Shown piece by piece: positions 35,007-55,927 of a DNA stretch of 64,000 bases (the first letter of the stretch is position 1; every line of letters starts with the position of its first letter). The position numbers were made by a program, and so were the translations under genes. The DNA is taken from positions 1-64,000 of the forward strand of contig JAUCBJ010007566.1 of NCBI GenBank assembly GCA_032718475.1, in the 5' to 3' direction. Under the pieces are notes generated by a model. The model did not search any database, had not been told where the DNA came from, and saw only the letters and a list, made by a program, of their open reading frames with translations. Source of the stretch: Nemertoderma westbladi (lineage: Eukaryota > Animalia > Xenacoelomorpha).

Positions 35007-35084
35007 CCGCTCCCAGAAAATGGGATTTGAGTCTATAAAATATACAAAATCACAGTTTCTAATATACGTAAATACTCTAAACAG

Positions 35085-36170
35085 TTAGTCTTTCTAACGC
35101 GGACGGCGTTTACGCAGTTTTTTAAAGCTAGCCAGAGTCTTTTTCTCTTTGGGGCGAGCCACTTTACAAGGAGGGCTATAACTCCTGGGTGAAGGGTGCA
35201 ATATGATTGCATCAGAAGGTGTAGGATTATGGTCGGTGTATCCGCCAGTCGAAGTACCGGGTTGATTGACATCAACGTCGGGGGAGAGGGGTCTAACGGC
35301 TTTGAGAGCTCGTTTTAAGACAGCCGCTCTTACGGGTCCTTTATGAGTGGTCTGAACGAGAGCCGTGGGTGGACCATAGGCAGTTAGAAACCTCCGGGGT
35401 TTAATGGTTCTTTCTAACTCGCGTTCGCAGGCTCGGTATTCATAAGGCCGTCGATATACTTCCTGTAACTCGGGGTGTGAGTTAACAAATAAGTCTCCAT
35501 AGTCCGGGTCCTGACGGATATAATTGATTAAGCTATAGGAATGAAGGTCGCTAGGATTAACACTCCTGAGAAATTTGTGTACGAACTTGGTTGAAATACA
35601 TTCTCCGACGCGCTTCAGTAGTTCGTAACTCGATATGCGTGATTTCTGTTCGACAGAAGCGAATAGATAAGGATGGAACGCATAAACTCCTTCGTAAGCG
35701 CGTCCAGGATAATAACGATGGCGCGAATCACAATGTAAATCAGCGTTCGCTTCCCAAGCTCTGATGTAACGTAGTGTGATCATTTCATCTACGCTTTCCA
35801 AATCGTGATTAAAAAGGGCAATCGAAACTGGCGCGTCCCTTTAGTTGACAATGGTGCCATTGAGTCATAAATTGAGGGCAAACCGCAAAAATGTGCAAGT
35901 TATTGAGTCTGCAATACGCGCAATAAATTTCCATCGCCGGTTGTTCGTGGAAATAGGAACAGCGGACGTTTGTGTCCATGGGCGTAACATGGTCTCTCGA
36001 TGCGCATAACCGACAACGTTGCCGAGAAACATAGTTGGCATGGCGATAATTGTACGCAGTGAGACACTGTGGACCTTGATACCATTCTAGGATATAATCG
36101 TTGTCGCTGTTCCGGGCGCGATAGGCTGAATCTCCTCAGATTCTAGGCATATTGGTTCGTCTTCCCAGTC
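35085..36170 (-). pseudogene. A1 accessory-ORF remnant (zinc knuckles and basic tail; exonuclease part absent)
   Basis: Collinear with about 39013-40095: CRLCASRDH, YCAYCRLNNLHIFAVC, then ESVDEMITLRY...KKLRKRRPR; frameshifted. Confidence 0.82.
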
Positions 36171-36534
36171 TGTTACGAATAGAATTTTCGTGATCTATTC
36201 TCGGTTTATCGTTATGACTCCGCTGGGTATGATATTTAAATAGAACCATTTCCCTTTCAGTGTCTACATCGTCCGTATCATGTAAATCGATAGGATGGCC
36301 GGTAGTTAGGAAGTCCATATACGTACTATTACGATGCGTATAGCGAGCGGTGAATTTTCGATAGTCCAATTCACGCGTAAGTTGCTCTTGGGACATCGGC
36401 GGTTCGATATAACGACCATCGTCCTCCGTAATGGTTGGATCGGTTTCACTGCGTATCAAGCTATCCACCAATGCTTGTAAAGGTAGAGTATATCGCTCCC
36501 TGATACCAAGATCATCTTCTATCAACTCCGTCAT
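36136..36534 (-). other. 132-aa ORF inside A1, unassigned (possibly the N-terminus of the deleted accessory ORF)
   Basis: ATG-initiated and abuts the accessory remnant out of frame; no recognisable motif. Confidence 0.35.
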
Positions 36535-37678
36535 ATCTGCTATCTGAGTTTATTAATATCGAAATGAGTTTATGTTTAGGCGAGCGGACGTCGCTGCCTA
36601 CCTCACTTTGCCCCCGGACAGTGGGATTCTCATCGCCGATGTACCGTCGTCGCGGTGTTTACGCCAACATGTAGCAACAGCACGACAACGATAACCGGCA
36701 CAAGTCACTCCACTGTCCGTCCCAAAGGCTTGAATCCACTTTAGGTTCTTTCTATAGGAGAGTTGGGCTACTTTCACAATTGCGACTAGCTACTGTAAAC
36801 ATACTTTAGCAGTAACATTCATCTATAAACGCACAAATTCCACACAACTGTCACCAATTGTACACATACAGGCCATTTGTCCGTTAGTCAGTGCCTTCCA
36901 GAATGTCACGTTATTACTGTGTATCTTTGGATACTAACAGTGTGCTATGTATTCTCTATGCTATGCAATGGGACAAGCCTTCTATTGTTCTTTTAACTTG
37001 CTTCTAATTCTAGCGTGGGTGTTGCTATGGTGACATTATGGAAAACTAGCGGTAGAATTAGGGTAATTCTCATGCATACAGATCTGGAATGCTATTTAAT
37101 AATAATTCTTTAATTGTCAATAGCCTCTTTATACATGATTTTATTAATTTTATTGGCTATTGACTATATGTCGGAGATTCTCGCACTCTAATACACTCAA
37201 TGGGATGAATCTCCGCTCCCATGATCTATTAATTAATGGAATTTTGGGAATGTTATAAATTGCACAAAACGACAATTTATGAATTTCATTTAAAGTATGA
37301 ATTTAAATTTATTCCCGTGAATTTTATTATTTGATGTTAAAATTGACACAATTTGATTCCAGAGCAGGTCTGGGGACATAGGATCCTTAATTCTATGAAA
37401 TTTGTCTTTTAAGAGTATCGGGAAGTGCTACGATATCTTAATCGACTAGAATTGTTAACGGATCTGAATTTTACAGATTTTAATAAATATTAAATTAATA
37501 TTTAAGATGGACACCGATTTATTCCAGAACTTGTCTGGGGACGTTAACCATTGATTCTAGAATTTGTCTTTCAAGTATATCGGTGGGTGCCGCGATATCT
37601 TAATCGACTAGAATTACAGATGGTCAAAAGGTTTAACAGATTTATTTGCTTTTTACGCTACTGTTAGAGGGACATCAC

Positions 37679-38934
37679 TGTTCGCGCTTTCAGACCTTTG
37701 GCAGTTTAACCCGCCAAATTAGGATGTCTTCTAGATAATAAATCACTTTTAGCCTCTGACAAGTATTTGATTCACTACACTAGTCGAAACCAATCGGTGC
37801 GCGATCATTCACCCGCTGGATATACCCGGGAGATTGGGTTCGACGGCTTAATCTTATTGCTATGTAAGCCTAATGTATTATTCGACTGACAGTATTATAT
37901 AATCTCTGACAATATTATTCACCTTCGGGGAATATTAACAGTTCCTTTAGGACGTGGCGCTCTATCTATATAAACAGAGTTATGACTTAAACTACTCACA
38001 ACGATATGGCTTAGTTACAATTCACATATATGGCGCATTCTTTAGGAAATGCTTCGTTATCAGTCTCGCTCATACACAACGCTGCACAATACTGCACACT
38101 GATCTGCCGATCTTCACTGATTTTAGTCACATATAAAAGGAACACAGACCGACTCATGTAGGGTCTATCAAATAACATCAGATTCACTTCAAACCACTTT
38201 AACATAAGTCACAATCGTTATATGTAACCTGTCTCTCTTACCTTCTGTATATCAAGAATATTGGGTTTTCGGGGTTATTTATCATTATTCCAAATATAAT
38301 AATTCATCAACCATATTATGAAGAACTGACAGTAAATAGCAGTATAACAATATAAAGTATGCACAGGTATATTAGATTAGGTATGTTGCGTTGATTGAGT
38401 ATGGGCCAGTTAACCAGTGGCCAGTGTGCCGTGGTTTGTTTGCAAGTTTGAGACAATCAGATAACGGATATATGTCCTTATAATTAAGCCTACTAGTGTT
38501 AGGCTAAAACAGAAAAGCACAAAATATTCCCAAGCCGCTCTCTCCTGGCTCAGGACAGAATGTAAACACTGCCCATAATGCATTGCGTGATTTCTAGGAA
38601 ATTTCTGTACAAGAGCCATAAAAATGCTCTGATTGGCTGACTGAACTGAGAGACGCCGTAGAACAAAGAAAATCGACACGTATGAATATCAGCTGTTAAC
38701 CGTCGTCATAGTAACTACTGTTCAAGAGTAGCTATCACCTTTTGCGTCACGGAATTGCCATAGAATCATCAACTATGCCTTTCACAGTACACATACGGAG
38801 GAAATAGCTCTTAGATCCTCTAAAAAACACCGATACAGCAATAATACGGTCTCTTACACCTATTAAATCAACTACAGAGTATTTTAATGTAAAAATAATA
38901 AAAATAACGGGGCAATTCAGCAAAGGCTTTTACA
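37679..38934 (-). mobile_element. 3' LTR of BEL/Pao element A2 (element spans 37679 to at least 50837)
   Basis: Minus strand TGTAAAAG...GAACA preceded by the same GGGAGCGG PPT-like tract; 1256 bp. Confidence 0.82.
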
Positions 38935-39012
38935 CCGCTCCCAGAAAATGGGATTTTCAGTCTATAAAATATAAAAATCACAGTTTCTAAAACCTAAAGA
39001 TACTCTAAACAG

Positions 39013-42000
39013 TTAGTCTTTCTTACGCGGACGGCGTTTACGCAGTTTCTTGAGGCTAGCAAGAGTCCTTTTCTCTTTGGGGCGAGCCACTTTACGAGGA
39101 GGGCTGTAGCTCCTAGGCGAAGGGTGCAATACAATTGCATCAGAAGGTGTAGGGTTACGATCGGTATACCCGCCGGTCGAAGTACCTGGTTGATTAATAT
39201 CAACCTCGGGGGAGCGAGGTCTAACGGCCTTGAGGGCGCGTCTCAGGACAGCAGCTCCTACGGGTCCTTGACGGGTCGTCTGGACACTAGCGGTGGGTGG
39301 ACCGTGAGTGGTGAGGAACTTTCTTGGTTTAATGGTTCTCTCCAGCTCGCGTTCTCGGGTTCGATATTCATATGGTCGCCGAGATACTTCCTGTAGTTCA
39401 GGATGCGAGTTCACAAAGATGTCGCCATACTCAGGGTCCTGACGGATAAAATTGATCAGGTGATATGTGGTTATATCATTAGGGTTAACGTTTCTAAGGT
39501 ATTTTCTGACAAACTTGGTGGAAATACACTCACCAACACGCTTCATTAACTCGTAACTTGGTACGCGTGTTTTCTGTTCAATCGACGCGAATAGATAAGG
39601 ATGGAACGCGTAAACTCCCTCGTAAGCTCGTCCAGGGTAATAGCGATGTCGGGATTCGCAATGTAAATCCACGTTCGCTTCCCAAGCTCTGATGTATCGC
39701 AGGGTGATCATCTCGTCTACGCTCTCTAAATCGCGATTAAAGGGACAATTGTAACTTTCATGTCCTTTAAGTTGACAGTAGTGACATTGAGTCATAAATT
39801 GTGGGCAGACGGCAAAAATATGAGAGTTATTAAGCCGGCAATAAGCATAATATATTTCCATCATCGGTTGTTCGAGGAAATAGGAACAAGGTACGCTCGA
39901 GTCTAGAGGGGTGAAGTGGTCTCTCGATGCGCATAATCGACAACGTTTTCGAGAAACGTAGTTGGCGTGTCAATAATCGTACGCTGTGAGACGTTGTGGA
40001 CCTTGATACCACTCTATGACATAATCATTGTCACTGCTCCAGGAAGCTGTAGGCTGAATCGCTTCTGATTCCAAGCATACTGGTTCATCCTCCAGCTGTA
40101 TAGACGAAGTGGGTGCGTCGGTCTCAGTAAGTGGACCCACTGTCTTTATTTCCACGACAGAATAACCTGTAGGTATTCGGGGTCTTTGTATAACAGATGA
40201 ATGTAAGTTCTGTATACAAACGTCTTGAAAAACGGCAAATCCAGCGCTACTCAGTTTCTCCGCAGCTGAGTCTCTCAGACTGAGTTTGGTCAGCGCGCGG
40301 TCCTTGAACTGACTATCGACGTTACGGAACGGAGTCAGAAAGCGCCGGAAACATTCGAAACGTATGAACTTATTGTGTTCGTCTAACTTGGCGAGTTTAG
40401 TTCCAAGTATTAATGGATGAGCGCGTATGGTACGACTGCACACATCGGCTAGCCAACCGGCAAGTGCTGCGTTTTCAAAGATCGTGTATATAGCTAAGGA
40501 AGGGCGAAGTGGAACACTCATAAAGTTATATACGGCACCAGGCGCAGTTAATGGTCCATCAAAATATAAACGAGAGTAATGATCTCCATATACTTGCTGG
40601 TAATTGATAGGATTTCCAACTTTGAAATTCCATCCATATTCTTGAAAGGCAAGATGTCCGATGGATGTCCGTTGTACCTTAGTAATGTCGCTGGGTGTAT
40701 TGGCATACATAGTGCGAAAGAAACCTCGGCCTTCGGCCCAAGGAGCAATCAGCTGAGTATCAACGAAAGGGTATGGAATGTTTTCCATATTCCGGAAGTC
40801 GTTTTGGAGATCTCCATAAACAGCTGAGCCGATTTTTAGGATTCTTTCGTTAAACAACATTTCGAGCACAGGTTGGGGTAACATTGATCCATCGATACCC
40901 ATGGCCGGTTTGCGCTCGGTGTCGGTGACGTAACGCTGCGCGAGCTCGAATAGTCCATGTCGAAGTTTCTTTTGTGTCTCCGTAAGGGTTTCAAAAGAAT
41001 AATCAATCACGTCGGAACACGCTCGAGTGAATACGTGGGTAGAACCAGCGAGTCCTCGTATATGTATCATTCGCGTAGTTCCTAGTTCTCCCACCGGAAC
41101 GCTACCTTCGTTGTCATAAGTAACAACGCCATACATCTCGATAACGTTAAGAGTTTCGTTCCATTCTTTAGTGGCGTTTTCGAGAGTCATTCCTACTGGA
41201 TGCCACAAAGTAGCGCATTCGCTGGCATTGGGTAAATCTCTATACTTTAAGCATTGTGTAGTATAGGTTTCCACATCTCCGTATCGTTTTATTCTTTCTT
41301 CCTCGAATAACACGTCAAGATTCCAGTGCACCAATCGAGTTTTAATGAATCCATCAAGATTGTACGGAGGTAATATTTCTTTCTCTATTCTGGAAATATT
41401 ATACGGTTTTCGAAATGAGTTTAGTTTAACTAGCTGATCTAGATGTTTTTGTAGTTGTTCGAGTTCGACAAGGTCGAGAGGATTGATTAATGGTAGAAAC
41501 CTCAGACTATGCGTAGGATCTTCCGGTTTTACCATGTAATATTGCTTTAAATTGACGTAATAAGGATGATCCTTAATTCCATAAAATGAGTCCGGCAAAG
41601 GTCTAGCGCGTATGTTAACATCGTGTACCATGCGACGGACTAGATCCGCTCTATTGTCCGGAGGCTCAACAAGTACACCATCGACACGAGCAGCCGCGAT
41701 GGGTGGACGTTGTATCATAGGAGCGTCAGCAATGAGCTCTTGAGATCTGAGATCGGTATTAACCGGTTGAGGCTGTACCGTAGCAAAGAGCTTGTCTTTA
41801 AAATGAGGAACCATCGAGGGGTGGAGGATCGTTTTGGAATAGAGATCCGTCACGAGAATTTGAGTTTCTGGTTGGGCTAAAGCAGCTTCTTCCCTCTCAG
41901 TCAGCTCTATATGTCTCTCCTCGAGCTGATTTTCCTCCGCTTGTTGTTGCAAGCGCTCGTCCAGGAATTCCTGTAGGGAGTAGGTTCGTCCACGTTCGAT

Positions 42001-42447
42001 GTCCTCCTCTAGATTTTGTATTTCTCTATCGAACTGGGGCAAAGCTAGTTCTTTCACCGCTTGGACTTGTTGTTGCAATTTACGTTTCTCCAAGCAATCG
42101 TAAGTTCCTTTTCCGATTTTCTGCCGAATAGCGTCCAATGCATTTCGTATCACGCTCTCTTCGACTTCTGTAACAGGTTGGATCGGAGGGAGGCCAGGAC
42201 GGTTGTAGGGGTTAAACGGTGATATTAGATGACCGCGTCCTAGTCCAGCGAGGTAAGGTTGGCGAATATCTAACGAACCCACTACCGGAGTGCCACCAAT
42301 CAACTGTTCAGGTAACACTAGATCTTTGAACAGTGAGTACAGCTCGGGAGGATCCGTAATACTATTAGGATCGAGAGTTTGAGGTATCACTTGGGAATGA
42401 GGAGGTCTGACCGAGTATTCCGGAACTCTGATCATGGGTTTATTCAA
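39013..42447 (-). CDS. A2 accessory ORF: DEDDy-like 3'-5' exonuclease, 3 zinc knuckles, basic tail (one frame split by TGA at 39970-39972)
   Basis: VVTYDNEG, MIHIRG..THVF, LPQPVLEMLFNERILKIGSAVYGD, FVDTQ, SIGHLA; ORFs 39970-42447 and 39013-39864 are in the same frame, and the stop codon is CGC in A1. Confidence 0.78.
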
Positions 42448-42930
42448 TGATCGTTTAAGGCGCGCGACCGTAGGTGATACGTCGAAAAGGTTTCGCTCGA
42501 AACTCCCATAAGTATATCGCGTAAAACTGTGTTTAGCACAACGTCTCCGCGGATGTTTATGCCTTTCGATTTGCTGGTTAGGTCTAGGTCATTCGTCACA
42601 GTAATACCAAAGACGCACGTCTTGAAGGGGAAACGCGGGTGATCGCTCTCCAGTTTTACAATATTCCTCCATCTGTTCGAAGCTATCTGGAACGACAGGG
42701 AGTGGTCGATCGGCGGTAAGATACATCATCGTAAAATAGAGCCGTTTGAGTTCATAGGATCATAGGATCTGGATGTATACCTTGAGGATATCGAGTTTCG
42801 AGGTTTTGTTGACTAGCAACATTGAGATAGGTCTCTCTTAGGAATTCTAGATATTCGTTGAAGCCACTACGTTTATCAGGTTCTTCAACGTCTTCTCTTT
42901 CGAGTTTATTTCGATGACGATGATGATGAT

Positions 42931-45900
42931 TTAACGATGATGAAAACATCGTTTTAAATAGGTGACGGCTTTACAGAACCGATTCCAGGAGCTGTAGTGA
43001 CGTATCGCTCTCTGCAAGAGGGGTGAGAGTCCTTGCGCGATATCTGGTATTCCAGATTTCCAATCCTTGTCACGGATTTCCAAGACTTCTTTAGTCGTGG
43101 CGGTGGGTTTCTGATCCAAAGCATCCTCTCCGGAAGTAAATAATACAGATAGATCAACCGCAGGTTTAAACAACTTCGATTTACTCGCTCGAGTTTTGGG
43201 TTTAACTTTCTCCGCTCCCTTGGCCTGTCTGATCTCTGCTGTTGTGAGATGGGGAGGCCATTCTTCTTCTTCTCTGTAGAGAAAGTCGGGTCCACCTAAC
43301 CATTCGGGAGTATTTACTAATTCCCTTGGAGTCACTCCTCGGGAAGCGATGTCTGCTGGATTAATCGTTCCGGGGCAATGTCTCCATTGGTCCATCGTCG
43401 TGCGACTAAGTATGATGGCTACTCTGTTGGTAACGAAGACGCTGAACTGACAGACTTCATTGGTTATATACTCTAACACGAGTAAAGCGTCGGTCCAATA
43501 GACAGTTTTCTCTAATGGATAGTCAATCTGTTCTGTTACATTCCGGCCGATGGCTGTAGCGTATAGAGCCGCTTTTAACTCCGCTCGAGGAACTTTCAAC
43601 TTGTTGTTGATTAATGCCTTAGAAGTAACCAAGGCGACTTTGATTCCATCCGGAGTTTCCACTCTTAGATAGGCTACTATACCTATTCCCATATCGCTGG
43701 CGTCTCCAAACACATGGAGTTGATAGGAATACGTAGGGAGAACATGACCAAAATATGAACGGGAAATTATAAAATCCTCGATAGCCGGCAGAGAATCTTC
43801 CCATTTCATCCACTTCTTTAATAATTCTCCCTTAAGTGGATCGTCCCATGAGTGGTTTTCAAGCCACATTTGTTGTACCAAACTACGAGCAATCAATATA
43901 ACTGGGCTAATAAATCCCAATGGATCGAAATAAGTGCTCAGTATACTTAAGCAAATCCGTTTGGTTCGAACTGGATTATCTCGCTGTTTTAGCTGGAAAA
44001 ACAGGATATCTCGCTCTGTGTCCCATTTCAAGCCGAGTGTCTTGGTTTCTGGCAGATCATCTTTGATCAAATCTAGATCTTTCGCCCCTCGATCTTCCGC
44101 AGGGATCGACTCCAGAAACTCACGGGAGTTGCTGGTGAATTTCGTTAATCGAAACCCACCTCTTTTTAAGCACTCTACCGTTCCTTTAGCGACCTCAATG
44201 GCTTCCTCAACTGATGGAAGGGACTTCAGATTGTCGTCCATGTATATGTCCCGCTTGATGTTGTCGATCACTTCCTTAGAGAAGGCCTCTCGGTTGTCCT
44301 CTGCAGTGGTACGCACTACCGAACAGGCGTTGGAAGGGCTTGAGATTATCCCAAAGGCCTGGATAGTCATCCAGTACTCCACCGGTTTCTGGTTGAGGTC
44401 TCCTTCGGGCCACCACAGAAATCGTAGACTATCTCGATCCCTATCTAACACCTTGACTTGTAAGAACATGCCTTCTATATCGGAGGCGAAAGCAATCGAA
44501 TATTGTCTCAATCTTAAAAGAATTCCCAACAAAGATTGAAGTAAGTTGGGTCCGGGTAACAATTCAGAGTTAAGGGATTGACCCATGTAAAGAGCGGAGC
44601 CATCAAACACTACTCTCACTTCATGTGGTTTACCGGGTTTAGGAACGTAATGGTGAGTTAAGTAATACGTTCTTTCAGTCACAGGTGTTTCTTCCGGTAC
44701 TCTCTCCGCGTATCCCTTACTAATAAATTTCTCCAGCTGTGTTTGATACATTTCTTTAGCTGAAGAATTAGCCGTAAGGCGTCGATGGAGTTGCGCGATT
44801 CTTTTTTCCGCCAAGGGTCTGTTATTGATGAACTTCGGTTCTCTCTTGCGGAAAGGTAGACCGACTTCATACCTACCTTGATCTTTGAGGAAACGTGTAG
44901 TTGTCTCTTGGATCTGCTTGGCCCTTTCCTCTTCCACCGACAAGGCTTTATCGTAGGAATTGGGCTCTACCGCCTCTTGCGTAAAGAATCGTACGGCATG
45001 TTCATCTCGAGTCTTGGCATTACAACGCTCAATGACGTCATTTAGCTCGTCGTTATAAGCTTCTCGTTCAGATAGATAAAGAAGTTGACATAAGTTCACT
45101 TGGTTTTGCCAAGCCTCGTTTTCCTTAAGGAGATCGATGGTATTCTCCTCATCAAAAAGCTGGTGAACGTCGTCGTTATCTGAGGAGTATGGGGTTCCCT
45201 CAGTTAAATCGTCTCCCTCACTACTATCATCTTCCCATTCACTCACCTGGCAGACGCGCTCTTGCGGTAGTCTTTCTCTGAGTGTTCTACGGGAAGGGCC
45301 AGTAAAGTACCAACCTACTCTAGTTCTTACCGCATAGGTCTGTAGGGGCTGCGGTTGAGCAGGCCGTTTCTCTAATGTCTCCAGCGCCTCATGCGCGTTT
45401 TGGCCGATGAGTATTTGCACTCCAGGATAATCAGTCTGGAATCGAGGTATGTTAAGATGTTGGATGCTCTCATCCTCATCCCAATTATAAAGGTCTGCTT
45501 GAGTAGTAGCGAAGTTCTTTATAGCCACCATTTTCACTGACCTTATGCTATGTTCTCCTAGTTCGTCCTGGGGGGTGGACAACGCTCCTACATAATAATC
45601 CGCTGTTACTGTAGATTTCCAAACTTGCATAATTCCTGACATATTTAGCTTGGTTCGGAACTTGGGTTGTCCAGCGAAGATGTCTTCGGCTAGTTCTTTA
45701 TCAATGAATGTTCCTGTGCTGCCGGAGTCCAGGAGGGCGTTCACTATATAGCTCTTCTGAGGTCCATGGACCCGTAACTGGACTACAGGAAATTCTCGGA
45801 TTCCTACATCGGAAGTTGGTGCTTTCCACGATGGTTGTCGATCAGAAGTAGTTAGAGTGAAGTCGCTGTCTGTATCTTTTTCATATGTGAGTGCTCGATA

Positions 45901-48900
45901 CACTGCGGTATTTATCATGTAACAGGATTCATTTTCGTCGGAGAACTCGTCCGTATAGAATCCTTCCATCTCAGATTGATCAGTGTCATTCACATCACTG
46001 AATTGGACATGTAGCTCGGAATCACTTACCTGATTAGGACTATTTCGATCGAATTCAGCGTGCAACAAGATATGATGTTTCGCACCACACTTTGCACACC
46101 TTATGTCAGAGTAACAGGTTCGCCGTTGGTGTCCTTGTCTGAGGCAATTATAACATAACCGCTTATCCCACATGACTTCGCGTCTCTCCGTTAATGACTT
46201 CTTCAGGAATTCATCACACATATTCAAACGGTGGGTCCCGTCACACAGCGCACATTTCGGTTTGATGTTACTTACCTTATTTTGGGTGACAGTGTGCACT
46301 CTCGTTCTTTCTTCGGGCTTTCTTACCTGAATTCTCTTGGGAGACGTAGGAGGAGTTTTTCTTACCTGTTCTCTCTTGTCATTGGATCGAGACTTAAATT
46401 TACTTCCCTGTTCGTTAGGTGTTTTATTGATATAATAAGATCTTTCAGTGTCTTTCCCGCTATCCTCCCCTTGGGAAGCTTGGCTTTCGCCGTCGTCGGT
46501 ATAACACACTGGTGTTACCTTTCTTCTGGAGACGGGTTTCTCACTTACCTTGTTTTCCGATGTCTTCTCTCTGGACTGTTTTATGAGCTGTAATTTCACT
46601 TCGCCATCCAAGAATGTCATGAGATCAGTCATGGTAGGGTCTCGTTGTTGTTGTTCCATCATGTATAACACCTTTTTGTCCCAGCGTGTACCTACTCCAC
46701 CCTTCGGTAAAGTAGAAGCCACTGCTCTAATAACCATAGCACTCTGATACTCATGAGACTTACCTAGCCAATCTAATTGTCTGCAGATCTCCTGAATTTC
46801 ATCGGAAAACTCTATAATCCCGTTGCTAATAAACTTTCGGGGCGCTACCAACTTTGCATACAAATACCCAGCTATGTTATTCCTATTACCATACCTGATG
46901 TTTAGCGTATCCCAAACTTGTCTTAATCCGTCTGGATGTCCAATAAACTTTAACGCCATTAACTTGGGAGATCCTTCCAAGCACTCGATGAGGAATCTAA
47001 GTTTCTCTCCATTAGATAGTACAGAGTTCTGTATGTTATCTTTGTAATATTCATTAAATGGTAACCATTTCATCTCATCTCCATTGAACTTGACGATCTC
47101 TCCCACCTTCACCGCTTGCCGGGCTTCGGTTCTAGCCATTTGACGCGTAAAACTTTCTTGGGCCATCGTGTTATTTAATATCGAGTTATCGGTATATAAA
47201 TTTCTCGGATTATGATCAGGTCTATAGGGAATGTCATTATCAACAGGTCTATAATTACCCTTAATAGGGTTCACTATAGGAGTTTCTACTTCGCTAGCAG
47301 TATATATGCGTGTAGGCTCCACACCTTGCGCATGAGATACTTCAGACCTAACAGGTTGACACATTGTTACCGAGGGTGGTGGTATACCCCTTTGCGTATT
47401 TACTAATTTATCGCGTTCTAGCGCGATACTTTGCTGCACTTCTTGCAACTCTAGCCTACTTTCCCTTACTGTGCCCTTGAATTGCTGAACAGTCTCCTGC
47501 ATCTGCCCGAGCAGGAGATCCATCCCCCGCCGTCTCTCGTCCACCCATTCGACCGCCGAAGCGGGAGTCGCCAACGTTGTAGCGGGCGGACGAGGGACAA
47601 CGGGCGACAAATCATGAATATTTCGCTCGGGGTCCAGGACCTGAACTGTCTCCTGGGCAGTTCTACTGGGCACAGGTAGCTTAGTGCTATGCAGAGGGAA
47701 TTTAGAGGTAGCTTCAGGGAGCACAGGTGTGTCTATCACCGAAGGGGTGATTTCAAGAACAGGCCTAATTATTTCAGGCTCATCTACTATAGTAGGGAGT
47801 CTTTCTATTTTAATTATTTGGTCTGTGGGCTCTGTACTACCTAAGTTGGTGTTATTTAGTTGCCTTCTAACAGCTGGAGGCAAATCAGGCAATTTCTGAT
47901 GGTGGAATGTTCTTTTACGTCTGCTTAGACGAGATCTATTTCCTTTGCCTTCAGTATCGGTGGTATCGCCTTCCTCAGATGATGTATATCCCTGTCTTTT
48001 GGGAGTAGATCGATTCATCATCTGCATATTACTAGCTGTTAACTGTTTATTTATGCAGTCTTGATTCTCCTGAATGTTTTCCAATTCTAATTGGGTGGTT
48101 TCTTCAGTCGCTCTCCGTTCTGCTTCTGCCACTGCCTCTGCCGCCTTTCTTTCAGCTTCGGCCGCTTTTGCTTCTGCCGCTGCCGCTGCCGCCTTTGCCT
48201 CTGCCGCTGCTTCTGCCGCTGCCGCTTTTCTTTCTGCTTCTGCAGCTACCACTGCTGCTTTCTTTCTGTCTTCTATACGTTTTTTCTTTACTTGTTCTTC
48301 TTGGACTCGTGTCAGGCGGAGTTGTTCATCAAATTTAGCCTGATTCGCAGCCCTCATTTCCACATCGATGGCATCCAACACACGCTGAGTTCCTTCGCTA
48401 TTAGGGCTAAGTCCATCTAACCTTCTCCTCAACTCGTCATCACCTAAAAAACGTTGATAGTCTGACAGATAGATGTCAATGGCATCTCTCTTATGCGGTT
48501 TCTCTGCCGTCGCTTCACTTTCCACTTGGGAAAAAGTAGCGTCTGTTGATTCTCCATGGGTTGAGCGCTCCTCCAGCTGAGCTTTCCACTGAGCTGTTCC
48601 TTGAACTTGGCGACTCACCCGTTGAAACCAAGTCTTTACGGCAACTTGCAACGACGTGTCTTGTCTTCTTTTAGAAGCCTCTTCAAAGGCTGATAATATT
48701 AGCCTGATTCGCAGAATTCTTTCTCTAACTTGATAAAGCAGTTGTCCCTGCTCTTGAGGTCCTTGAGGTTGTTGTAACAGTTGTTTTTCTACTCGCTCCA
48801 TAGAGCTGAAGAATCCCTGTGCGTATCCGGCTGCGGACCTCTTCCACACAGCTGGATCGATGGTTTCCTTGGCTACTCCCATCCGGTGTATGTCTTCCCA

Positions 48901-49437
48901 GGCAGCTTCTGATAAATCAAACGGGAGTCCGGGTCCGGGGAAGTTCCATTGCGACTCGACCATAGACTTCAGTTCTTCCCTTGTGTATCCCGCATAACTA
49001 TCTTTAGTTGAGCGCTTACTTCTCGCCCAATCGATCTGGTGTTCTTCCACAGCGATCAATAACCTAGGGAGTACGGCTGCAGGAAGGATGAGAAGGGGAT
49101 CCGAATAAACCGCATCCGTCATCCTTGCTCCGCGCTCGGGTGTCAGTTCTACAGTATCTTCACTACTGGAGCTGTCGGGCCGCTGAGAAATAATTTCTTG
49201 GCTCACGGGTTGTTGCTGTTCCGCTGCTTCTTGGTCCCGCTTGACCTGAGCTCGAGTGCCTATGATAGACCTACGATGTTGGACCAGCCTAGGTTCTGTT
49301 ATTACTACAGGAGGGATGACCTTCCTCACAGTGGGAGGTGAACTGAACTTACGACTAGACGGTTCTACGCCTCTATCTGAGTCGCAGATAGTTACATCTA
49401 ATAAACTATCGGACAGGTTCTGCTTAGTATCAGACAT
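42931..49437 (-). CDS. BEL/Pao Gag-Pol of A2 (Gag knuckles, protease, RT, RNase H), integrase missing
   Basis: CALCDGTH..C, CYNCLRQGH..C, CAKCGAKHHILLH; LLDSGS; DIEGMFLQV, YMDD; KTLGLKWD, FDPLG; VFGDAS, HCPGTINPADIASRG; stops after YSSWNR. Confidence 0.93.
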   Translation of the reverse strand: MSDTKQNLSDSLLDVTICDSDRGVEPSSRKFSSPPTVRKVIPPVVITEPRLVQHRRSIIGTRAQVKRDQEAAEQQQPVSQEIISQRPDSSSSEDTVELTPERGARMTDAVYSDPLLILPAAVLPRLLIAVEEHQIDWARSKRSTKDSYAGYTREELKSMVESQWNFPGPGLPFDLSEAAWEDIHRMGVAKETIDPAVWKRSAAGYAQGFFSSMERVEKQLLQQPQGPQEQGQLLYQVRERILRIRLILSAFEEASKRRQDTSLQVAVKTWFQRVSRQVQGTAQWKAQLEERSTHGESTDATFSQVESEATAEKPHKRDAIDIYLSDYQRFLGDDELRRRLDGLSPNSEGTQRVLDAIDVEMRAANQAKFDEQLRLTRVQEEQVKKKRIEDRKKAAVVAAEAERKAAAAEAAAEAKAAAAAAEAKAAEAERKAAEAVAEAERRATEETTQLELENIQENQDCINKQLTASNMQMMNRSTPKRQGYTSSEEGDTTDTEGKGNRSRLSRRKRTFHHQKLPDLPPAVRRQLNNTNLGSTEPTDQIIKIERLPTIVDEPEIIRPVLEITPSVIDTPVLPEATSKFPLHSTKLPVPSRTAQETVQVLDPERNIHDLSPVVPRPPATTLATPASAVEWVDERRRGMDLLLGQMQETVQQFKGTVRESRLELQEVQQSIALERDKLVNTQRGIPPPSVTMCQPVRSEVSHAQGVEPTRIYTASEVETPIVNPIKGNYRPVDNDIPYRPDHNPRNLYTDNSILNNTMAQESFTRQMARTEARQAVKVGEIVKFNGDEMKWLPFNEYYKDNIQNSVLSNGEKLRFLIECLEGSPKLMALKFIGHPDGLRQVWDTLNIRYGNRNNIAGYLYAKLVAPRKFISNGIIEFSDEIQEICRQLDWLGKSHEYQSAMVIRAVASTLPKGGVGTRWDKKVLYMMEQQQRDPTMTDLMTFLDGEVKLQLIKQSREKTSENKVSEKPVSRRKVTPVCYTDDGESQASQGEDSGKDTERSYYINKTPNEQGSKFKSRSNDKREQVRKTPPTSPKRIQVRKPEERTRVHTVTQNKVSNIKPKCALCDGTHRLNMCDEFLKKSLTERREVMWDKRLCYNCLRQGHQRRTCYSDIRCAKCGAKHHILLHAEFDRNSPNQVSDSELHVQFSDVNDTDQSEMEGFYTDEFSDENESCYMINTAVYRALTYEKDTDSDFTLTTSDRQPSWKAPTSDVGIREFPVVQLRVHGPQKSYIVNALLDSGSTGTFIDKELAEDIFAGQPKFRTKLNMSGIMQVWKSTVTADYYVGALSTPQDELGEHSIRSVKMVAIKNFATTQADLYNWDEDESIQHLNIPRFQTDYPGVQILIGQNAHEALETLEKRPAQPQPLQTYAVRTRVGWYFTGPSRRTLRERLPQERVCQVSEWEDDSSEGDDLTEGTPYSSDNDDVHQLFDEENTIDLLKENEAWQNQVNLCQLLYLSEREAYNDELNDVIERCNAKTRDEHAVRFFTQEAVEPNSYDKALSVEEERAKQIQETTTRFLKDQGRYEVGLPFRKREPKFINNRPLAEKRIAQLHRRLTANSSAKEMYQTQLEKFISKGYAERVPEETPVTERTYYLTHHYVPKPGKPHEVRVVFDGSALYMGQSLNSELLPGPNLLQSLLGILLRLRQYSIAFASDIEGMFLQVKVLDRDRDSLRFLWWPEGDLNQKPVEYWMTIQAFGIISSPSNACSVVRTTAEDNREAFSKEVIDNIKRDIYMDDNLKSLPSVEEAIEVAKGTVECLKRGGFRLTKFTSNSREFLESIPAEDRGAKDLDLIKDDLPETKTLGLKWDTERDILFFQLKQRDNPVRTKRICLSILSTYFDPLGFISPVILIARSLVQQMWLENHSWDDPLKGELLKKWMKWEDSLPAIEDFIISRSYFGHVLPTYSYQLHVFGDASDMGIGIVAYLRVETPDGIKVALVTSKALINNKLKVPRAELKAALYATAIGRNVTEQIDYPLEKTVYWTDALLVLEYITNEVCQFSVFVTNRVAIILSRTTMDQWRHCPGTINPADIASRGVTPRELVNTPEWLGGPDFLYREEEEWPPHLTTAEIRQAKGAEKVKPKTRASKSKLFKPAVDLSVLFTSGEDALDQKPTATTKEVLEIRDKDWKSGIPDIAQGLSPLLQRAIRHYSSWNRFCKAVTYLKRCFHHR

Positions 49438-50837
49438 GTTTATGTGTACAGTTGAATGTCTACTGCTGTATTACAGTCTGAGCAAGTCTAGTAACTCAGT
49501 ATTAACTGCTAGCCTAGTAATTAATTACCGATACTGCTACTCAGTGTAGCGTGATATATATAATATATTAGAATACCGGTATGCTTATAGTATATATAAC
49601 TATATAAGTATTATTACAGACTAGGTTTATCACAGAATACCGGTATAATTTTAGCACAAAGATATATAAATATATAATAGGCCTATCGGGAATACCGGTA
49701 TACAGCTTACAGTTTGTAGTATATATAATTCTGGACTAGAATTAATTACAAGTACCGGTATAATTTCAGCCTAAATTTATAGAAATAAAGATAATAGGTA
49801 AATACCGACCGGTATATCAATTATTTTAAATAATTGAATTTCTGAATTTTAGGGTTACTTGGTTACTTTACTTACTTTATTACCGTTATTTGAGCAGTAA
49901 TCCAACTGATATTGAGACCTAATGGTTGTATGGTAGGCCTACTATTTATAAATCGTTAGATTTGATTTATAATATATATATACCCGTTTTAATGGGTTTT
50001 GTCGATGTTTGAAATAAATGTTATTATTTCTGGGGAGTAATCACTACACAAAGCGGTGCGCTTTCAGTGAAGTGTTACTTATAGGACACTAAAACAAATA
50101 ATGCTAATTTACCTAAGTTACTTAATACTACCAATTACTTACAATTCGGGTGAGATTACAATCTCTAAATAAACACAAAAATTTACAAAAAACACAAAAT
50201 ACGAATTTTCAGGGTAATTTTACAAGAAGTCTACAAACCAGCCTAACAAAGGGTTAGAATTCTGGTTATTACAACGGACAGGGTACTGCGGTATTTGAAA
50301 ATAATACGTAGTAGTAAATACACTGCGTTGTCCAGATAGGAAAATACCACCGCCTGACGACCTATAGCCGTATCGCTATAGGTACTACGTTATGTATCAC
50401 GGAGTGTTCCTACCTAGAAGTTAATAGAGCTAATCGAACGTGCCTATCAACCACTTTACAACACAAATATAATGCCTACACTAATTACTTTCGGAAAGCA
50501 CTGTACACTAAACCCTAAATTAGGTACGAGTACTTGTACAACATATAATCAGTAGTTAAATATACTTGAACAGCTAAAAGAACCACGGCATCTGCTGGAG
50601 TGACCGGTGCACAAAATCACCAGTCTTTACCTACGCCAAGCAGCCCGTGTAGTACCGGGGTTAATTTAACTATAGCGGTATGTATAACAAACACAATTAT
50701 TGTAGGAACAAACTTGGGGAATGAATGTTGCGAATAATCGCATAAACTCTGAATAATAAATATTACGCTACGCGTACAAACCACTCAAACAAAATGCAGA
50801 CCAAATACTGACAGACTACTATCAAGCCTAAATAAAC

Positions 50838-51377
50838 TGTGACGGGATCCAGGAGGGATCCCGATTTATCCGATGTGGTAATTTAGTCCACGCGTCCCCG
50901 CCGTGTATAAGGGTGAAATAAAGTAACTGAGTTCTGGAGTTCGGTGTATAATAATAATAGGGCATAGGATATAGATATAGATATAATGTGTACAAGGCGG
51001 GATACGGTAACTAAAGTCCCGTGATCCCCTAACTAAACTAATTGACTGTACCCTACGCTAGCACTGCTGCACTGAGATAACTGAATCACTGATTAATAGG
51101 TTATTGGTTATATTGCACGGTGGCCTTACTGCTACTCAATCGATGCCATTCCCCCCTCTGATTGGTTAATACCCTTGTTGGCGCCCCGTGGAGTATTCCC
51201 GTTCACTCCACCTGTTCTCCCTGGGTTAGGGGTTTGGCCCCTGACCCTCTATTGTGTGCTTCCTTCCCACTCTTATTGGGATGGCACGAGTTGGTTAATT
51301 GCCCAATCTCGTGGCTCCCAATATTGCTTATCGGCTTACAACTTTATGGGGTGTTGGCGGGATTGAATAAGCTAACA
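50838..51377 (-). mobile_element. 3' LTR of BEL/Pao element B (element runs past the window end)
   Basis: Minus strand TGTTAGC...GTCACA preceded by PPT GGGGGGGAG; both ends match the solo LTR 7919-8463. Confidence 0.92.
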
Positions 51378-52087
51378 CTCCCCCCCATGCTATCTTCCCG
51401 GTAAGAAGATAGCATCAACCAAAAAAGTGCGTTACAATCCCGCTGGATCCCGATCTAATATCGGGTGTGGGGTGGAATTCTTTTCTCTAGGAGCCGGCTT
51501 TCCAGGCCGCCCCCTATGGGTATGATAACGCTACCCTGTGTGCCTGGCGTCTCATGTCGGGCCGATCGCGCTCACCTCTTCACACGACCTTTGTTTCCCC
51601 AACACTTTCGCCCTATCTCACCTTCACTCTCACCCTAGCTCTCTCACATTCGGACCTCCCCGTCCCTTACTCAGCCTCTTATTCTCCCCTCCCACACTCT
51701 AGAATCGCGTCCGCACTCTCTTTGCACTCCACTCTATCACTCCGTCCCTCAACCTCACTTCGACTGTTTTATCTCTCCTGACGAACCTCCCCCCCCTCTC
51801 GTGCCGTCGCACTCGAGAAGTATGAAATTGTCAGTTGTCTCGTCCATAGTGCCACAGTCAGTTATCCCCCAGTCCCAGTAGCTAATTGAGAAAGGTTGTA
51901 TGACTATAGTACTTACTCCGATCGTGTATTTTACTGCTAATCACTACGTACGTACATACAAATTGCACTTATGTTATTTGCATTAATTAAGTTTGTATTT
52001 AATAGTTCGTACGTTCCATGCGGCGCCTTCCAGGCGCACCACTTTCCAGTCTCAGTCTCACTCCCTCGTTCCCTCGTCTCTGGGAAC

Positions 52088-54283
52088 CTATCTGTTCCTC
52101 CTCACGTCCTCTTCCCTGGCCCGTTTCTTGGTTATCACCGCTCCTCTGGCATCATCCGCTTTCTGCTTCCGGACCTTCGCCGCCACTTCCTTGCTGATCC
52201 CGGTCGTCGGCTCCTTGGGCGCTGGTGTTATTAATGCCCGATACCGCTTCGCCGGTGGCCCCTCAGAATGGCCTGGTTGTCTCCCTCGAGTGGCGTCCCA
52301 TAGGATCATTTTCATTGCCTTTGGTACGTGTTCCGCCAAGAAATCCCTAAACTCCCTCCGGTTCTCTGGTGTCCACCTGTCCAGGTACCGTTGCGTGTTC
52401 ATAACTCCGGCGAACGACGCCGCCGTTGCTACCTCTTGGTAGGTAAACGGTAACCTTCGCTTTATGATTTCCATGTGGGTCTCCTGGTTTATGAGGAAGA
52501 AACCCCACTTGAACTCTTGGGCCTTCATGCGCTGGCGCGTCATGGCCCCGACGTCGGCCCACTCCTCGAACCTCGTGAACTTCTCCTCGTCGTTCATCCA
52601 GTCACACTCGCGTCCGTAGTGTCCCCGAAAGTGGCACTTTGGACATCGGTTATGCAACCGTGGACACGCCCTCATCCTGTGACTTGGTTCTCTACAGTAG
52701 AGACAAAAGGTTCCCCGTTGGAACCGGTACAGGCAGCTGCTTTCCCGATGGGTCTGTCTCCCACAGTAGTCGCAGCCGAGTACCAATGTCTCCCGTCCCA
52801 CCTCGTCCTTCGTCCCAAGCGATCTCCGCGGTCTATGGAGTCGCTGGTAGGCGAACTTCTCTACGTTGCTCTCCCTGTTTACGTCGATCTCTCCGCCCCT
52901 CTCGGGCATCGTCTCCCCGAATACTATCCGTGGTGCCGTCCCCGGTTGCTCGCCCAACCTGATGGTGCTCCCCGCGAAATCCATCGCCGGCTCCTCGTGC
53001 ACCCAGGTCCGCTTGCCGGATCTGTTCCAGAAGGCCCTCGCCCCACTGGCCGTCACCACCCTTCCGCCAACCCAGTCCGTGTCCGAGTGGCCTATCCTCT
53101 CGATGGGCGGCATCTCTCCGAATTCGTCGTCGTCGTCCTCCTCTTCCGGTAGTGTCTCCAATCCCGGTATCCCGATGGATCCACTATGTCCCTTCCCGCC
53201 TTGGCTCTCGCCCGTAGCTCTCCATCCCTCTAGCTCCCTTAACTTCCTTGGCGGTTGGTCGCCCTCGGCGCCCGCTGGTATGGGCATCGTTTGCAACCCC
53301 GACGTCGACTGTTTCGGCGATCCCACCGTCCATCCCAATTCTCGCCCTAGAGACTCCCCCGAACTCCCTGACGAAGTCCAATGAAGTTCGTCTAGGCCCG
53401 CCTGTTCCTCGAAGCCGTAACTCTGTGCCCTGGCCTCCTCTTCCCTCTCCTCTGCTTCTATCCTCTCCCGTCTAGCGACTTCTTCCAGTCGCTTTGCTTC
53501 TCGTCTGTCCGCCTCTAGCTGCTCCCATCTCTGATACGGTGTATCTGTCTCCCCGTCTACCAGATGTCGGCTGTTGTAGTACACCGACTCGCCCTTCAGC
53601 CCCGGGTGGTCTACCAGACCGTCAAAGGCCACTTTAAAGGCTCTCCTGTAGCTTAGGGGTGATCCCGATAACAGAAATGCCCCTGGTTCCCTTTCGATAA
53701 CTACGGTCATGAATAAGTTAAGCAAACTTATCATCATCCAGTCCTCCTGCAGGATATATCGCTTCTGATATACCTTTATCGCTCCTCTGCGAAACTGATA
53801 TACCTCCTGCTTTCCCGGTCTCGCTCCCCACTTCAGCGAGTTCGCTAGTTCTGCTCCGTATTCTTCCCTAAACTTCCCCCAATCCATTGGTTTGTGGCAT
53901 ACGAGCCCCAATAATTGGCCCATCGCCACCGCCCCGCATTGGCCTGAGTTCTCGACCACCCCCAATCCATCCGGTGCCGTCATAGCCATAAAGACTTTCT
54001 GCATATCCAGGAGGTTGGTGGCGTCCGGACCGATGATCCTCTCCGCGTCCTCGCGAATCGCCGATCCCACTTTCGTCGTCGACTTCTCTCTTACTAAGAC
54101 TTGTACCGCTTTCGGCAATCGGTCTAATTTCGGCCCGTCCTTCTTCCCATACGTCCCTAGGTCGAATAAGAAGATGTCCCCATTCGGCGCGGCCAAATGT
54201 AGGAGTATGGTCCTGGCCGACCCTGCCGTTCCTCGTCTCGAACCCGCTTCGTCTTCCACGGTTCCCTCGTCATCTAGGATCAT
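52088..54283 (-). CDS. B accessory ORF: DEDDy-like 3'-5' exonuclease, 3 CCHC knuckles, basic tail
   Basis: MILDDEG, ILLHLAAPNGDIFLFDL, LPKAVQVLVREKSTTKVGSAIREDA, LLDMQ, QKRYILQED; CDYCGRQTHRESSC, CLYCREPSHRMRAC, CPKCHFRGHYGREC. Confidence 0.82.
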   Translation of the reverse strand: MILDDEGTVEDEAGSRRGTAGSARTILLHLAAPNGDIFLFDLGTYGKKDGPKLDRLPKAVQVLVREKSTTKVGSAIREDAERIIGPDATNLLDMQKVFMAMTAPDGLGVVENSGQCGAVAMGQLLGLVCHKPMDWGKFREEYGAELANSLKWGARPGKQEVYQFRRGAIKVYQKRYILQEDWMMISLLNLFMTVVIEREPGAFLLSGSPLSYRRAFKVAFDGLVDHPGLKGESVYYNSRHLVDGETDTPYQRWEQLEADRREAKRLEEVARRERIEAEEREEEARAQSYGFEEQAGLDELHWTSSGSSGESLGRELGWTVGSPKQSTSGLQTMPIPAGAEGDQPPRKLRELEGWRATGESQGGKGHSGSIGIPGLETLPEEEDDDDEFGEMPPIERIGHSDTDWVGGRVVTASGARAFWNRSGKRTWVHEEPAMDFAGSTIRLGEQPGTAPRIVFGETMPERGGEIDVNRESNVEKFAYQRLHRPRRSLGTKDEVGRETLVLGCDYCGRQTHRESSCLYRFQRGTFCLYCREPSHRMRACPRLHNRCPKCHFRGHYGRECDWMNDEEKFTRFEEWADVGAMTRQRMKAQEFKWGFFLINQETHMEIIKRRLPFTYQEVATAASFAGVMNTQRYLDRWTPENRREFRDFLAEHVPKAMKMILWDATRGRQPGHSEGPPAKRYRALITPAPKEPTTGISKEVAAKVRKQKADDARGAVITKKRAREEDVRRNR

Positions 54284-54623
54284 ATATCCTCCTCTGTTGA
54301 CGGACTCTATGAATCTTTTCCAGGTCCTTCCTCGGCGATTCCCTCGGATACTTCGGAATCCCGAACTTCGCCTCGTCCCCTTTCACCACGTAGTGGAAGT
54401 GTTGGAAGATCGCGTTGTCTAGTGACGGGGTCCCGTAGGTCCCGACCAACCGCTGTTCGTGCGCCTCCCGGAAGTGATCCTGCAGCGCTCGTGCCGCGTG
54501 ACCCCTTTCCAACCTCTCGTAGTATCCTCTCGTCTTCTCTTCCGGGTGTCTTTCGGTGAAATCCACCAATATTTCTTTTCCTCCTGACTCCGCCTTTCTC
54601 TTCCTGATCAGCTTACTCGCCAT
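54270..54623 (-). CDS. Probable frameshifted N-terminal part of the B accessory ORF
   Basis: ATG at 54623; overlaps the exonuclease ORF, whose frame reads TWKRFIESVNRGGY before MILDDEG, comparable to A2 EWNETLNVIEMYG. Confidence 0.5.
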   Translation of the reverse strand: MASKLIRKRKAESGGKEILVDFTERHPEEKTRGYYERLERGHAARALQDHFREAHEQRLVGTYGTPSLDNAIFQHFHYVVKGDEAKFGIPKYPRESPRKDLEKIHRVRQQRRIYDPR

Positions 54624-55124
54624 TCCGAACACTACACTCGCTCACCTGCAGGGTGGTGCCTTACCAAGGCGCAATACAGATGAGTGAAGAATTTAAGATG
54701 TTTCGTACAGTTCGATAATGGCCTACTTTCTACTTAATTGCGCCTTTCAAGCTTAATTTAACCTAATTAATTTCGGAGCTAGTAAATCAGCCTAATTTAC
54801 AATTTCTGTCCGTTACTTTTATTATGTTCTAGAATGACTTTCCTTGTGTTGCCACTATTTTACGATTTTAGCCCTATTCTATTTATTTGTTTATTTTTCT
54901 TTGATTCTACTGTCCTACTACTTACTACTGCCTATGGATTTATTCTATTCTCTGATCCATATTCTGGCCTACTCTGTGGGCCTATGCAGTACAGCAGTAT
55001 GCGTCGTGTGGCCACACGATTTATCCAGCTGCACTCATATGCCCCCCTCTCGCTACTAACTCTACTTACTGCTGATTAATATCTATATCCTATTTACCCC
55101 TTTTACCTCTTACTCTCTCTCTTC

Positions 55125-55812
55125 TAACTAATGGTACTACGTACCTACTAACTCTCTAACTATCGGTACTACGTACCCTCTAACTCTAACTCTAACTAGG
55201 TACTACGTACCTACTAACTCTCTAACTATCGGTACTACGTACCCTCTAACTCTAACTCTAACTAGGTACTACGTACCTACTAACTCTCTAACTATCGGTA
55301 CTACGTACCCTCTAACTCTAACTCTAACTAGGTACTACGTACCTACTAACTCTCTAACTATCGGTACTACGTACCCTCTAACTCTAACTCTAACTAGGTA
55401 CTACGTACCTACTAACTCTCTAACTATCGGTACTACGTACCCTCTAACTCTAACTCTAACTAGGTACTACGTACCTACTAACTCTCTAACTATCGGTACT
55501 ACGTACCCTCTAACTCTAACTCTAACTAGGTACTACGTACCTACTAACTAACTAACTCTAGGTACTACGTACCTACTAACTCTCTAACTCTAGGTACTAC
55601 GTACCTACTAACTAACTAACTAACTCTAGGTACTACGTACCTACTAACTCTCTAACTCTAGGTACTACGTACCTACTAACTAACTAACTCTAGGCACTAC
55701 GTACCTACTAACTCTCTAACTCTAGGTACTACGTACCTACTAACTAACTAACTCTAGGTACTACGTACCTACTAACTAACTAACTCTAGGTACTACGTAC
55801 CTACTAACTAAT
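55125..55812. repeat. Internal tandem array in B: GGTACTACGTACC hairpin plus CTAA-rich spacers (66-bp dimer of 32+34, then about 30-bp monomers)
   Basis: Seen directly between the pol stop and the accessory ORF. Confidence 0.95.
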
Positions 55813-55927
55813 TAACTATTATTTTTATTTTATTTTTTATTTTATTTGTGTGGGAAGGGCGTCTCGCCCTCAATCCCACCCCCCTCAGTCCAAAGCTTGG
55901 ACGACTAAACTCCACTCTAACTCCATT

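Follow-up and report, generated by a model that had tools for sequence, protein, structure and literature searches.

A predicted exonuclease and triple-knuckle gene in the third-gene position of two BEL/Pao elements from Nemertoderma westbladi

A third gene in two divergent BEL/Pao elements

Two BEL/Pao retrotransposons, A2 and B, each carry a third gene in a 64,000-nt stretch of DNA from Nemertoderma westbladi (contig JAUCBJ010007566.1, positions 1 to 64,000; hereafter the window). This gene, open reading frame 3 (ORF3), lies between pol and the polypurine tract (PPT) with the adjoining TGT start of the long terminal repeat (LTR). It is predicted to encode an RNase D-type exonuclease, followed by three CCHC knuckles and a basic tail. 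The coding parts of A2, of B and of an older copy of the A family, A1, are all on the minus strand, as are the element features given below.

In A2, the 5′ part of ORF3 (39970..42588, 872 codons, first ATG at 42435) comprises an unassigned N-terminus of ∼420 residues, a DEDDy-like exonuclease domain (40399..41187) and a linker. An in-frame stop at 39970-39972 then splits the gene between the exonuclease and the knuckles; A1 is open at this point. The 3′ part (39013..39969, 318 codons) holds three CCHC-type knuckles (39942-39745), a helical post-knuckle region and a K/R-rich tail. The second knuckle of A2 is degenerate and begins with Tyr, where A1 has Cys. In B, a short N-terminal frame (54270..54641, 123 codons, ATG at 54623) overlaps the main frame out of phase, the shift falling between about 54382 and 54335. 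The main frame (52088..54382, 764 codons) encodes the exonuclease domain (53678..54340), an acidic linker of ∼300 residues, three CCHC knuckles (52774-52604), a post-knuckle region and a K/R-rich tail. The stop-free lengths of 872 and 764 codons compare with maxima of 254 and 246 in 300 base shuffles. An earlier note on this DNA had described a long sense-strand ORF between pol and the PPT in both elements. Its position and motif order stand, but both ORFs are broken, A2 by the stop and B by the change of frame, and the A2 start that it placed at 42447 is superseded by the first ATG.

Every motif that the note had listed, from D-x-E to the K/R-rich tail, was located in both ORFs, in the order D-x-E, D, D(T/M)Q, Y-x-x-x-E, three CCHC knuckles and basic tail. 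A2 reads YDNEG (41118), LP..V..L......KIGSAV..D (Asp at 40812), DTQ (40764 region) and YTIFE (40488), which places the key residues at D492/E494, D593 and Y701/E705 of frame P0001. The corresponding motifs of B are LDDEG (54277), KVGSAI..D (Asp at 54049), DMQ (54010 region) and YILQE (53758), with D37/E39, D112, W185 and Y209/E213 in frame P0004. The last 40 residues contain 16 (A2) and 13 (B) Lys or Arg residues.

The carriers belong to two divergent BEL/Pao families, as had been claimed. Peptidase_A17 is matched in both (Pfam; E 7e-36 in A2, 7e-40 in B), DUF1759 lies above the cut-off in both, and their reverse transcriptase (RT) domains are 44% identical (101/229). An envelope (Env) identity of ORF3 was rejected because none of the four ORF3 frames contains a transmembrane segment (maximum 19-residue hydropathy 1.3); Pfam also gave no Env family match.

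Identity of the predicted exonuclease domain

Sequence profiles support the prediction of an RNase D-type exonuclease, each single test being weak. Among 18,950 NCBIfam models, the only two matches of the A2 domain were RNase D (E 0.0037 and 0.027). A profile built from 60 bacterial DEDDy domains and run on the 270 window ORFs of at least 60 codons placed the A2 ORF3 at the top (E 0.0097) and the B ORF3 next (E 0.037), well ahead of the third ORF (E 2.6); the profile of the RNase D subset reached E 2e-4 for A2. Significant profile matches came only from the RNase D, no-Pol and full sets; the bacterial EXD2-like (11 members), NrnC (20) and Pol I (9) subset profiles gave nothing significant. The whole-domain scores of the two proteins (z 3.9 and 5.4) were higher than those of any of 150 shuffles each and of all 37 Gag-Pol control windows, and a profile-profile comparison returned a probability of 75% (E 2.4e-5) over 46 columns.

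The motifs could be placed on the family pattern to different degrees. MAFFT set the B Asp, Glu, Asp, Lys, Trp, Gln and Tyr on conserved DEDDy columns, with Glu at the position of the motif III Asp; in pairwise alignment, YTIFE of A2 falls on the motif III place of B. The D-x-E of motif I was found in B by both hidden Markov model and MAFFT, and in A2 by MAFFT, with the profile alignment preferring another D-x-E. The motif II Asp after a K-containing strand, then D(T)Q, is present in both proteins. When the whole B ORF3 was compared with PDB sequences, the top match was the knuckle domain of TbRND, the RNase D of Trypanosoma brucei (7c42, E 0.022), a result independent of any fold model. Pfam scans of the whole frames found no HRDC domain, which in the Rrp6 and bacterial RNase D subfamily follows the exonuclease, although a very divergent copy would escape them.

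A DnaQ/DEDDy fold is predicted for the domain. An AlphaFold model of the B exonuclease guided by A2 and 41 bacterial DEDDy rows had a predicted local distance difference test score (pLDDT) of 73 and a predicted template modelling score of 0.71. Its top Foldseek matches were TbRND (E 9e-5), EXD2 and Nibbler; the bacterial type used as guide, E. coli RNase D, came at rank 32. A wide structural search with the same model returned many tied DEDDy chains (Z 10-12, root-mean-square deviation 3.3-4.4 over 152-184 residues), and its viral matches were 3′-5′ exonucleases.

Several observations weigh against this assignment. Modelled alone, the B exonuclease failed (pLDDT 35), and the guided fold is partly circular, since the 41 bacterial rows went into it. 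Pfam gave no exonuclease match in either ORF3 at E up to 10, and none of the 18,950 NCBIfam models matched the B exonuclease. Our own profile alignment missed motif III in both proteins and picked the other D-x-E in A2. Statistical support spans motifs I-II in B and, in A2, motif II together with DTQ. Finally, the canonical YxxxD is YxxxE in both, and the placement of motif III depends on the alignment. Taken together, a DEDDy-family domain in ORF3 is very probable. The DEDDy/DnaQ identity that the earlier note had proposed agrees with the NCBIfam RNase D matches, the DEDDy profile and the guided fold, but not with Pfam or with the Glu in motif III.

This Glu bears on whether the protein is an active enzyme. 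ORF3 might encode a weak or dead exonuclease that serves as an RNA-binding module, comparable to EXD1 and Egalitarian, and that acts with the knuckles and basic tail as an adaptor for RNA export, localisation or packaging, a role like that of CERV in Cer1. Such an adaptor would fit the substitution of Glu for Asp in both proteins, the presence of Egalitarian and EXD1 among the fold matches of the guided B model, and the K/R-rich tails, which could serve as nuclear signals. There is also a precedent in the gypsy element Cer1, where, in the available text of PMC10309623, a non-env ORF in the env position (CERV) forms part of an RNA-export factor. However, all four metal-ligand positions are acidic in both exonucleases at ∼23% identity, which retained catalysis explains more easily. 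We consider a weak or dead adaptor possible, though on the unlikely side.

Retained catalysis also leaves a choice of substrate. The enzyme could act on DNA inside the particle, either by proofreading or by trimming cDNA 3′ overhangs or flaps, during strand transfer or ahead of integration. The DEDDy enzymes include WRN and the proofreading domains of Pol I, which share the top scores in the wide structural search (Z 10.8-11.9). In family A, ORF3 continues the frame of pol after a single stop and could thus be packaged as a Pol extension. DEDDy domains also occur within some Dada DNA transposases, according to the accessible part of PMC3706591. In B, however, ORF3 stands apart as its own gene, with 1.3 kb between it and pol, and the best sequence-level matches are RNases (RNase D and TbRND). 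CCHC knuckles, moreover, typically bind single-stranded RNA. We consider a DNA-directed enzyme improbable.

Relationship between the A2 and B genes

Sequence comparison makes a common ancestry of the A2 and B ORF3 likely, though not proven. A significant alignment between the two proteins, the lack of which the earlier note had named as a refutation, was obtained for the knuckle blocks (E 7e-5; z 8.2, 0 of 2000 shuffles scoring as high) but not for the exonuclease halves, for which BLASTP found nothing significant (best E 0.37). Three control comparisons with Gag knuckles gave z 3.5-4.5. The similarity between the exonucleases is carried by their N-terminal half (z 4.7, 5 of 2000 shuffles). 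Their C-terminal halves and the post-knuckle regions are not above chance (z 0.4 and 0.6). With other matrices, 48 (BLOSUM62), 4 (BLOSUM45) and 16 of 1000 shuffles scored as high as the exonuclease pair.

The two elements could instead have captured their exonucleases independently, or could share the knuckle block alone, with a distant or convergent resemblance between the exonucleases and no single inherited module. The marginal pairwise exonuclease similarity is compatible with this, as are the N-termini and linkers, which are unrelated between A2 and B. Rotifer elements, moreover, acquired DEDDy ORFs at least twice (PMC5408684, in the portion available). Yet domain order and position are equal in A2 and B, and the K(I/V)GSA(V/I)..D and D-x-E-G-(S/T)-V contexts are common to both. 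The knuckle blocks are also twice as similar to each other as to Gag knuckles, and the N-terminal exonuclease half aligns well above its shuffles. Independent capture is accordingly a doubtful account, and we judge it improbable.

Selection and other copies

The knuckle half of ORF3 is under purifying selection. Over 356 codons that cover the end of the linker, the knuckles and the tail, A1 and A2 differ with a synonymous divergence (dS) of 1.02 and a nonsynonymous divergence (dN) of 0.094, a dN/dS of 0.09; by codon position, the differences number 45/30/131. This ratio covers the knuckle half only, because A1 is without the exonuclease. The earlier suggestion of an old, selected module of a BEL sub-lineage is thus borne out for selection on the knuckle half, but otherwise rests on two families in one genome, with no homologue found beyond it in the collections searched.

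Four public runs contain family A in many copies. The family A stretch is present in public runs from four studies, with no RNA run among those listed, which has no bearing on expression; 30 of 30 bins of 36600-52000 were covered in all four runs examined. The ORF region was included; the earlier note had regarded an ORF missing from further copies of the two families as a refutation. Up to 67 distinct contigs in one run differ at single ORF positions, the depth giving no copy number. For family B, the stretch covered took in the 3′ untranslated region (UTR) and LTR, and these are repeated in the public runs.

Some copies have lost the exonuclease. A deletion derivative that skips 39157-41909, and with it the exonuclease and knuckles, is represented by its joint in two of the four runs (X1 and X3). 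The deletion in A1 also removes the exonuclease, yet differs from this one. Along with the broken state of both window copies, such exonuclease-less derivatives would be expected if ORF3 were a set of functionless, passively carried fragments of a captured host gene. The dN/dS of 0.09 between two element copies largely refutes this for the knuckle half. The gene is, furthermore, found in two families at 44% RT identity and has no introns, and passive cargo is very improbable.

Variation among copies also bears on how the family A protein is made. The A2 pol tail terminates at a stop (42589-42591) that is in frame with ORF3. The sequence on either side of this stop is coding-like (42435-42760). 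Around the border of pol and ORF3, third codon positions account for 27 of the 38 differences used (p 2e-6); of 40 listed differences among copies, the one at the stop codon and another within an indel were set aside. The excess is seen both between the stop and the first ATG (5 of 7 differences) and just upstream of the stop (6 of 8), and therefore coding of the family A ORF3 begins upstream of the ATG. The protein may be made by read-through of the stop or by splicing. The stop is read as a sense codon in 13%, 33%, 89% and 0% of contig depth in runs X1, X3, X4 and X5, respectively.

Comparison with known systems

DEDDy third genes have been described in the rotifer Juno, Vesta and Athena/Terminon elements (PMC5408684, PMC6431247 and PMC6338049, each in the text available). 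The rotifer precedent that the earlier note had mentioned is therefore real, and this kind of gene was already known. On these descriptions, the closest system is the DEDDy ORF3 of Juno and Vesta, and the closest architecture is that of TbRND. In the accessible text of PMC5408684, Juno and Vesta likewise carry an RNase D-like exonuclease gene with an altered catalytic signature downstream of pol, in the place of env. The same text does not call the carriers BEL/Pao (they have a GPY/F-type integrase and a dUTPase), gives the signature as DEED, in contrast to D-E-D-E in A2 and B, and describes no triple CCHC block, only a Cys-His-Cys motif in two families. These likenesses to Juno, Vesta and Athena are drawn from published descriptions, not from sequence.

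TbRND is the best PDB match by knuckle sequence as well as by exonuclease model. According to the available part of its description (PDB 7C42; PMC7797062), a DEDDy exonuclease is followed by tandem CCHC fingers, without HRDC; the fingers bind the RNA tail and the exonuclease trims it at a two-metal site. That paper calls the combination of an exonuclease and tandem CCHC fingers very unusual. TbRND itself, an enzyme of the cell, works in mitochondria; it has four fingers, a linker of 28 residues and the canonical motif III Asp, whereas A2 and B have three knuckles, longer linkers (170-300 residues) and additional domains. The similarity is weak (18-19% identity) and does not imply common descent.

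EXD1/EXD2, Nibbler/Mut-7, Egalitarian and WRN belong to the same predicted fold family by structural match, but they are host genes. None of them gave a sequence-level match, and the structural scores single out no subfamily. Several work in small-RNA trimming or RNA binding.

Among BEL/Pao elements, only env-like third genes are listed in the ICTV profile (PMC8742986) and likewise in the accessible part of a 62-genome survey (PMC3118150). A2 and B resemble Belpaoviridae in Gag-PR-RT-RH-IN (protease, RT, RNase H, integrase) order, complete in B and as far as RNase H in A2, in Pao-type domains, a TG...CA LTR in B, a PPT and the third-gene position. They differ in that the third gene is a predicted nuclease and knuckle gene rather than env-like, and in size: the stated range is 4.2-10 kb, whereas B is at least 13 kb and A at least 14 kb. 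No paper describing an exonuclease gene in a BEL/Pao element turned up in the literature searched, a scope that excluded subscription journals, Repbase reports and supplements. DEDDy, retroelement and Pao occurred together only in the rotifer paper PMC5408684, where 'Pao' is an author's name.

Homologue searches yielded no relative of either gene. In a collection of 5.8 billion proteins, B residues 15-300 gave 3211 candidates and A2 residues 330-800 gave 5630, with no match among them; a knuckle alignment searched against longer proteins gave 501 candidates, again with none. A profile search of 1.84 billion representatives produced one match, a DUF11 repeat protein, which was rejected as chance. 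Metagenome contigs contained 170 and 239 pattern matches, of which none was confirmed; phage tblastn found nothing, the PDB profile search gave one irrelevant match, and PHROGs gave nothing informative. These blanks do not show absence, because the collections are poor in animal transposon ORFs.

What is new here would be the BEL/Pao carrier, the TbRND-like combination of an exonuclease with a triple knuckle, and the D-E-D-E signature. The rotifer DEDDy ORF3 phenomenon would thereby extend to another LTR superfamily, and a third-gene slot described as env-like only would here hold a selected nuclease-plus-knuckle gene. The architecture of an exonuclease with tandem CCHC knuckles is likewise added to retroelement third genes.

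A possible role in trimming RNA

We tentatively favour a selected third gene whose product is a predicted RNase D-type 3′-to-5′ exonuclease with three CCHC knuckles, trimming RNA 3′ ends against host RNA surveillance. By analogy with TbRND, a single-stranded RNA tail would be gripped by the knuckles a few bases short of its end and fed into a two-metal site formed by D-E-D-E with Tyr. The substrate, the least-supported step, would be RNA in or near the element ribonucleoprotein, whether tails attached to the RNA of the element or small silencing RNAs of the host. The ORF3 protein would act in trans, because copies that have lost the exonuclease exist. The full version of this proposal is unlikely as a whole: an active RNase D-type enzyme with TbRND-like knuckles that strips element RNA of tails added by the host or degrades small silencing RNAs, and thus an enzymatic suppressor of RNA silencing in animals, encoded by a BEL/Pao lineage and perhaps produced in family A by read-through as an extension of Pol. 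In the literature examined, no function has been demonstrated for any retroelement DEDDy ORF. The B exonuclease domain is compact and uninterrupted, which makes bench tests of active versus dead, RNA versus DNA, and counter-silencing versus replication aid feasible.

Architecture of the elements

The Gag-Pol ORF of A2 (42931..49470, first ATG at 49437, 2179 codons) encodes capsid (DUF1759), knuckles, protease, RT and RNase H. It is followed by a broken pol coding tail (42589..42930), recognised by frame and third-position bias, which contains a deletion junction (42914/42932) and, near 42755, a frameshift. The 5′ leader (49471..50837) is interrupted by B at 50838, where the B LTR ends and run X5 shows a loose end. 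Downstream of ORF3 lie the PPT (38942-38935) and a presumed 3′ LTR that begins with TGT at 38934 (together 36600..38942), its 3′ end not being fixed. This stretch is repeated throughout in the public runs.

The pol of A2 ends after RNase H: Pfam finds no integrase, and tblastn with the B integrase finds B only. At the 42914/42932 junction, contigs from the public runs show loose ends on both sides, in three of four runs each, as well as indels, and one contig has 406 extra letters. The missing integrase is probably a loss in the A2 copy, with other copies carrying extra sequence, of unread content, at the junction. For the same reason, we rejected the idea that family A does without an integrase and has the exonuclease in its place.

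B gag-pol (55928..63999) is read in two frames (62083-63999 and 55928-62191), and its 5′ end lies beyond the window. By Pfam scan it encodes capsid DUF1759, protease, RT, a Pao-type RNase H (Peptidase_A17) and a complete integrase (H2C2, rve and DUF5641), which gives PR-RT-RH-IN order in B and PR-RT-RH in A2. A non-coding spacer of 1.3 kb (54642..55927) with a 32/66-nt tandem array (55067-55850) separates pol from ORF3, and a 3′ UTR of ∼0.7 kb separates the end of ORF3 from the PPT (51386-51378). The 3′ LTR (51377-50838, 540 bp) has TG...CA ends. Its borders are fixed by a 72% match to a B-family solo LTR (7919..8463, 545 bp) that is flanked by a 5-bp target-site duplication. B therefore shows TG...CA ends, a PPT and, via the solo LTR, a target duplication, and A2 shows a PPT and a TGT start; the 5′ LTRs of both are outside the window.

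Some small features of B were read by eye. A perfect 11-bp hairpin with a 7-nt loop lies directly before the PPT (51387-51415). PPT-like G-rich runs occur at 51862-51876, in the 3′ UTR, and at 55879-55891, just past the pol stop, the position expected for the PPT of a BEL element that lacks a third gene.

A1 (35094..36549) has lost the exonuclease and retains the knuckles and tail, along with a PPT and an LTR start at 35006. It is 81% identical to A2 in nucleotides (1172 bp; 34998-36165), and its frame at 36549-36175 has no counterpart in A2. The A1 and A2 LTRs have only ∼700 bp in common, at 76% identity. The interval 33400-64000 appears to be a triple nesting, with B in the A2 leader at 50838 and the A2 3′ LTR abutting the A1 interior near 36600.

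Other features of the window

Beside the A1 LTR is an intronless, frameshifted short-chain dehydrogenase (32460-33504, minus strand; adh_short E 5e-35), which we take to resemble 3-ketodihydrosphingosine reductase and which is probably a processed pseudogene. A 398-codon intronless ORF for a ligand-gated ion channel lies at 27836-29032 on the minus strand (Neur_chan_LBD E 1e-31), in support of an animal origin of the DNA. Near the start of the window, inverted arms of 480 nt, 97% complementary (196-1904), flank an RT fragment (637-1431; RVT_1 E 2e-18), and a DDE_Tnp_4 transposase fragment follows at 2309-2968 on the minus strand (E 5e-20). Long tandem arrays occupy 16418-18900 (39-nt units), 20423-21283 (33-nt) and 7557-9152 (30/32-nt), the last of which contains the inserted B-family solo LTR.

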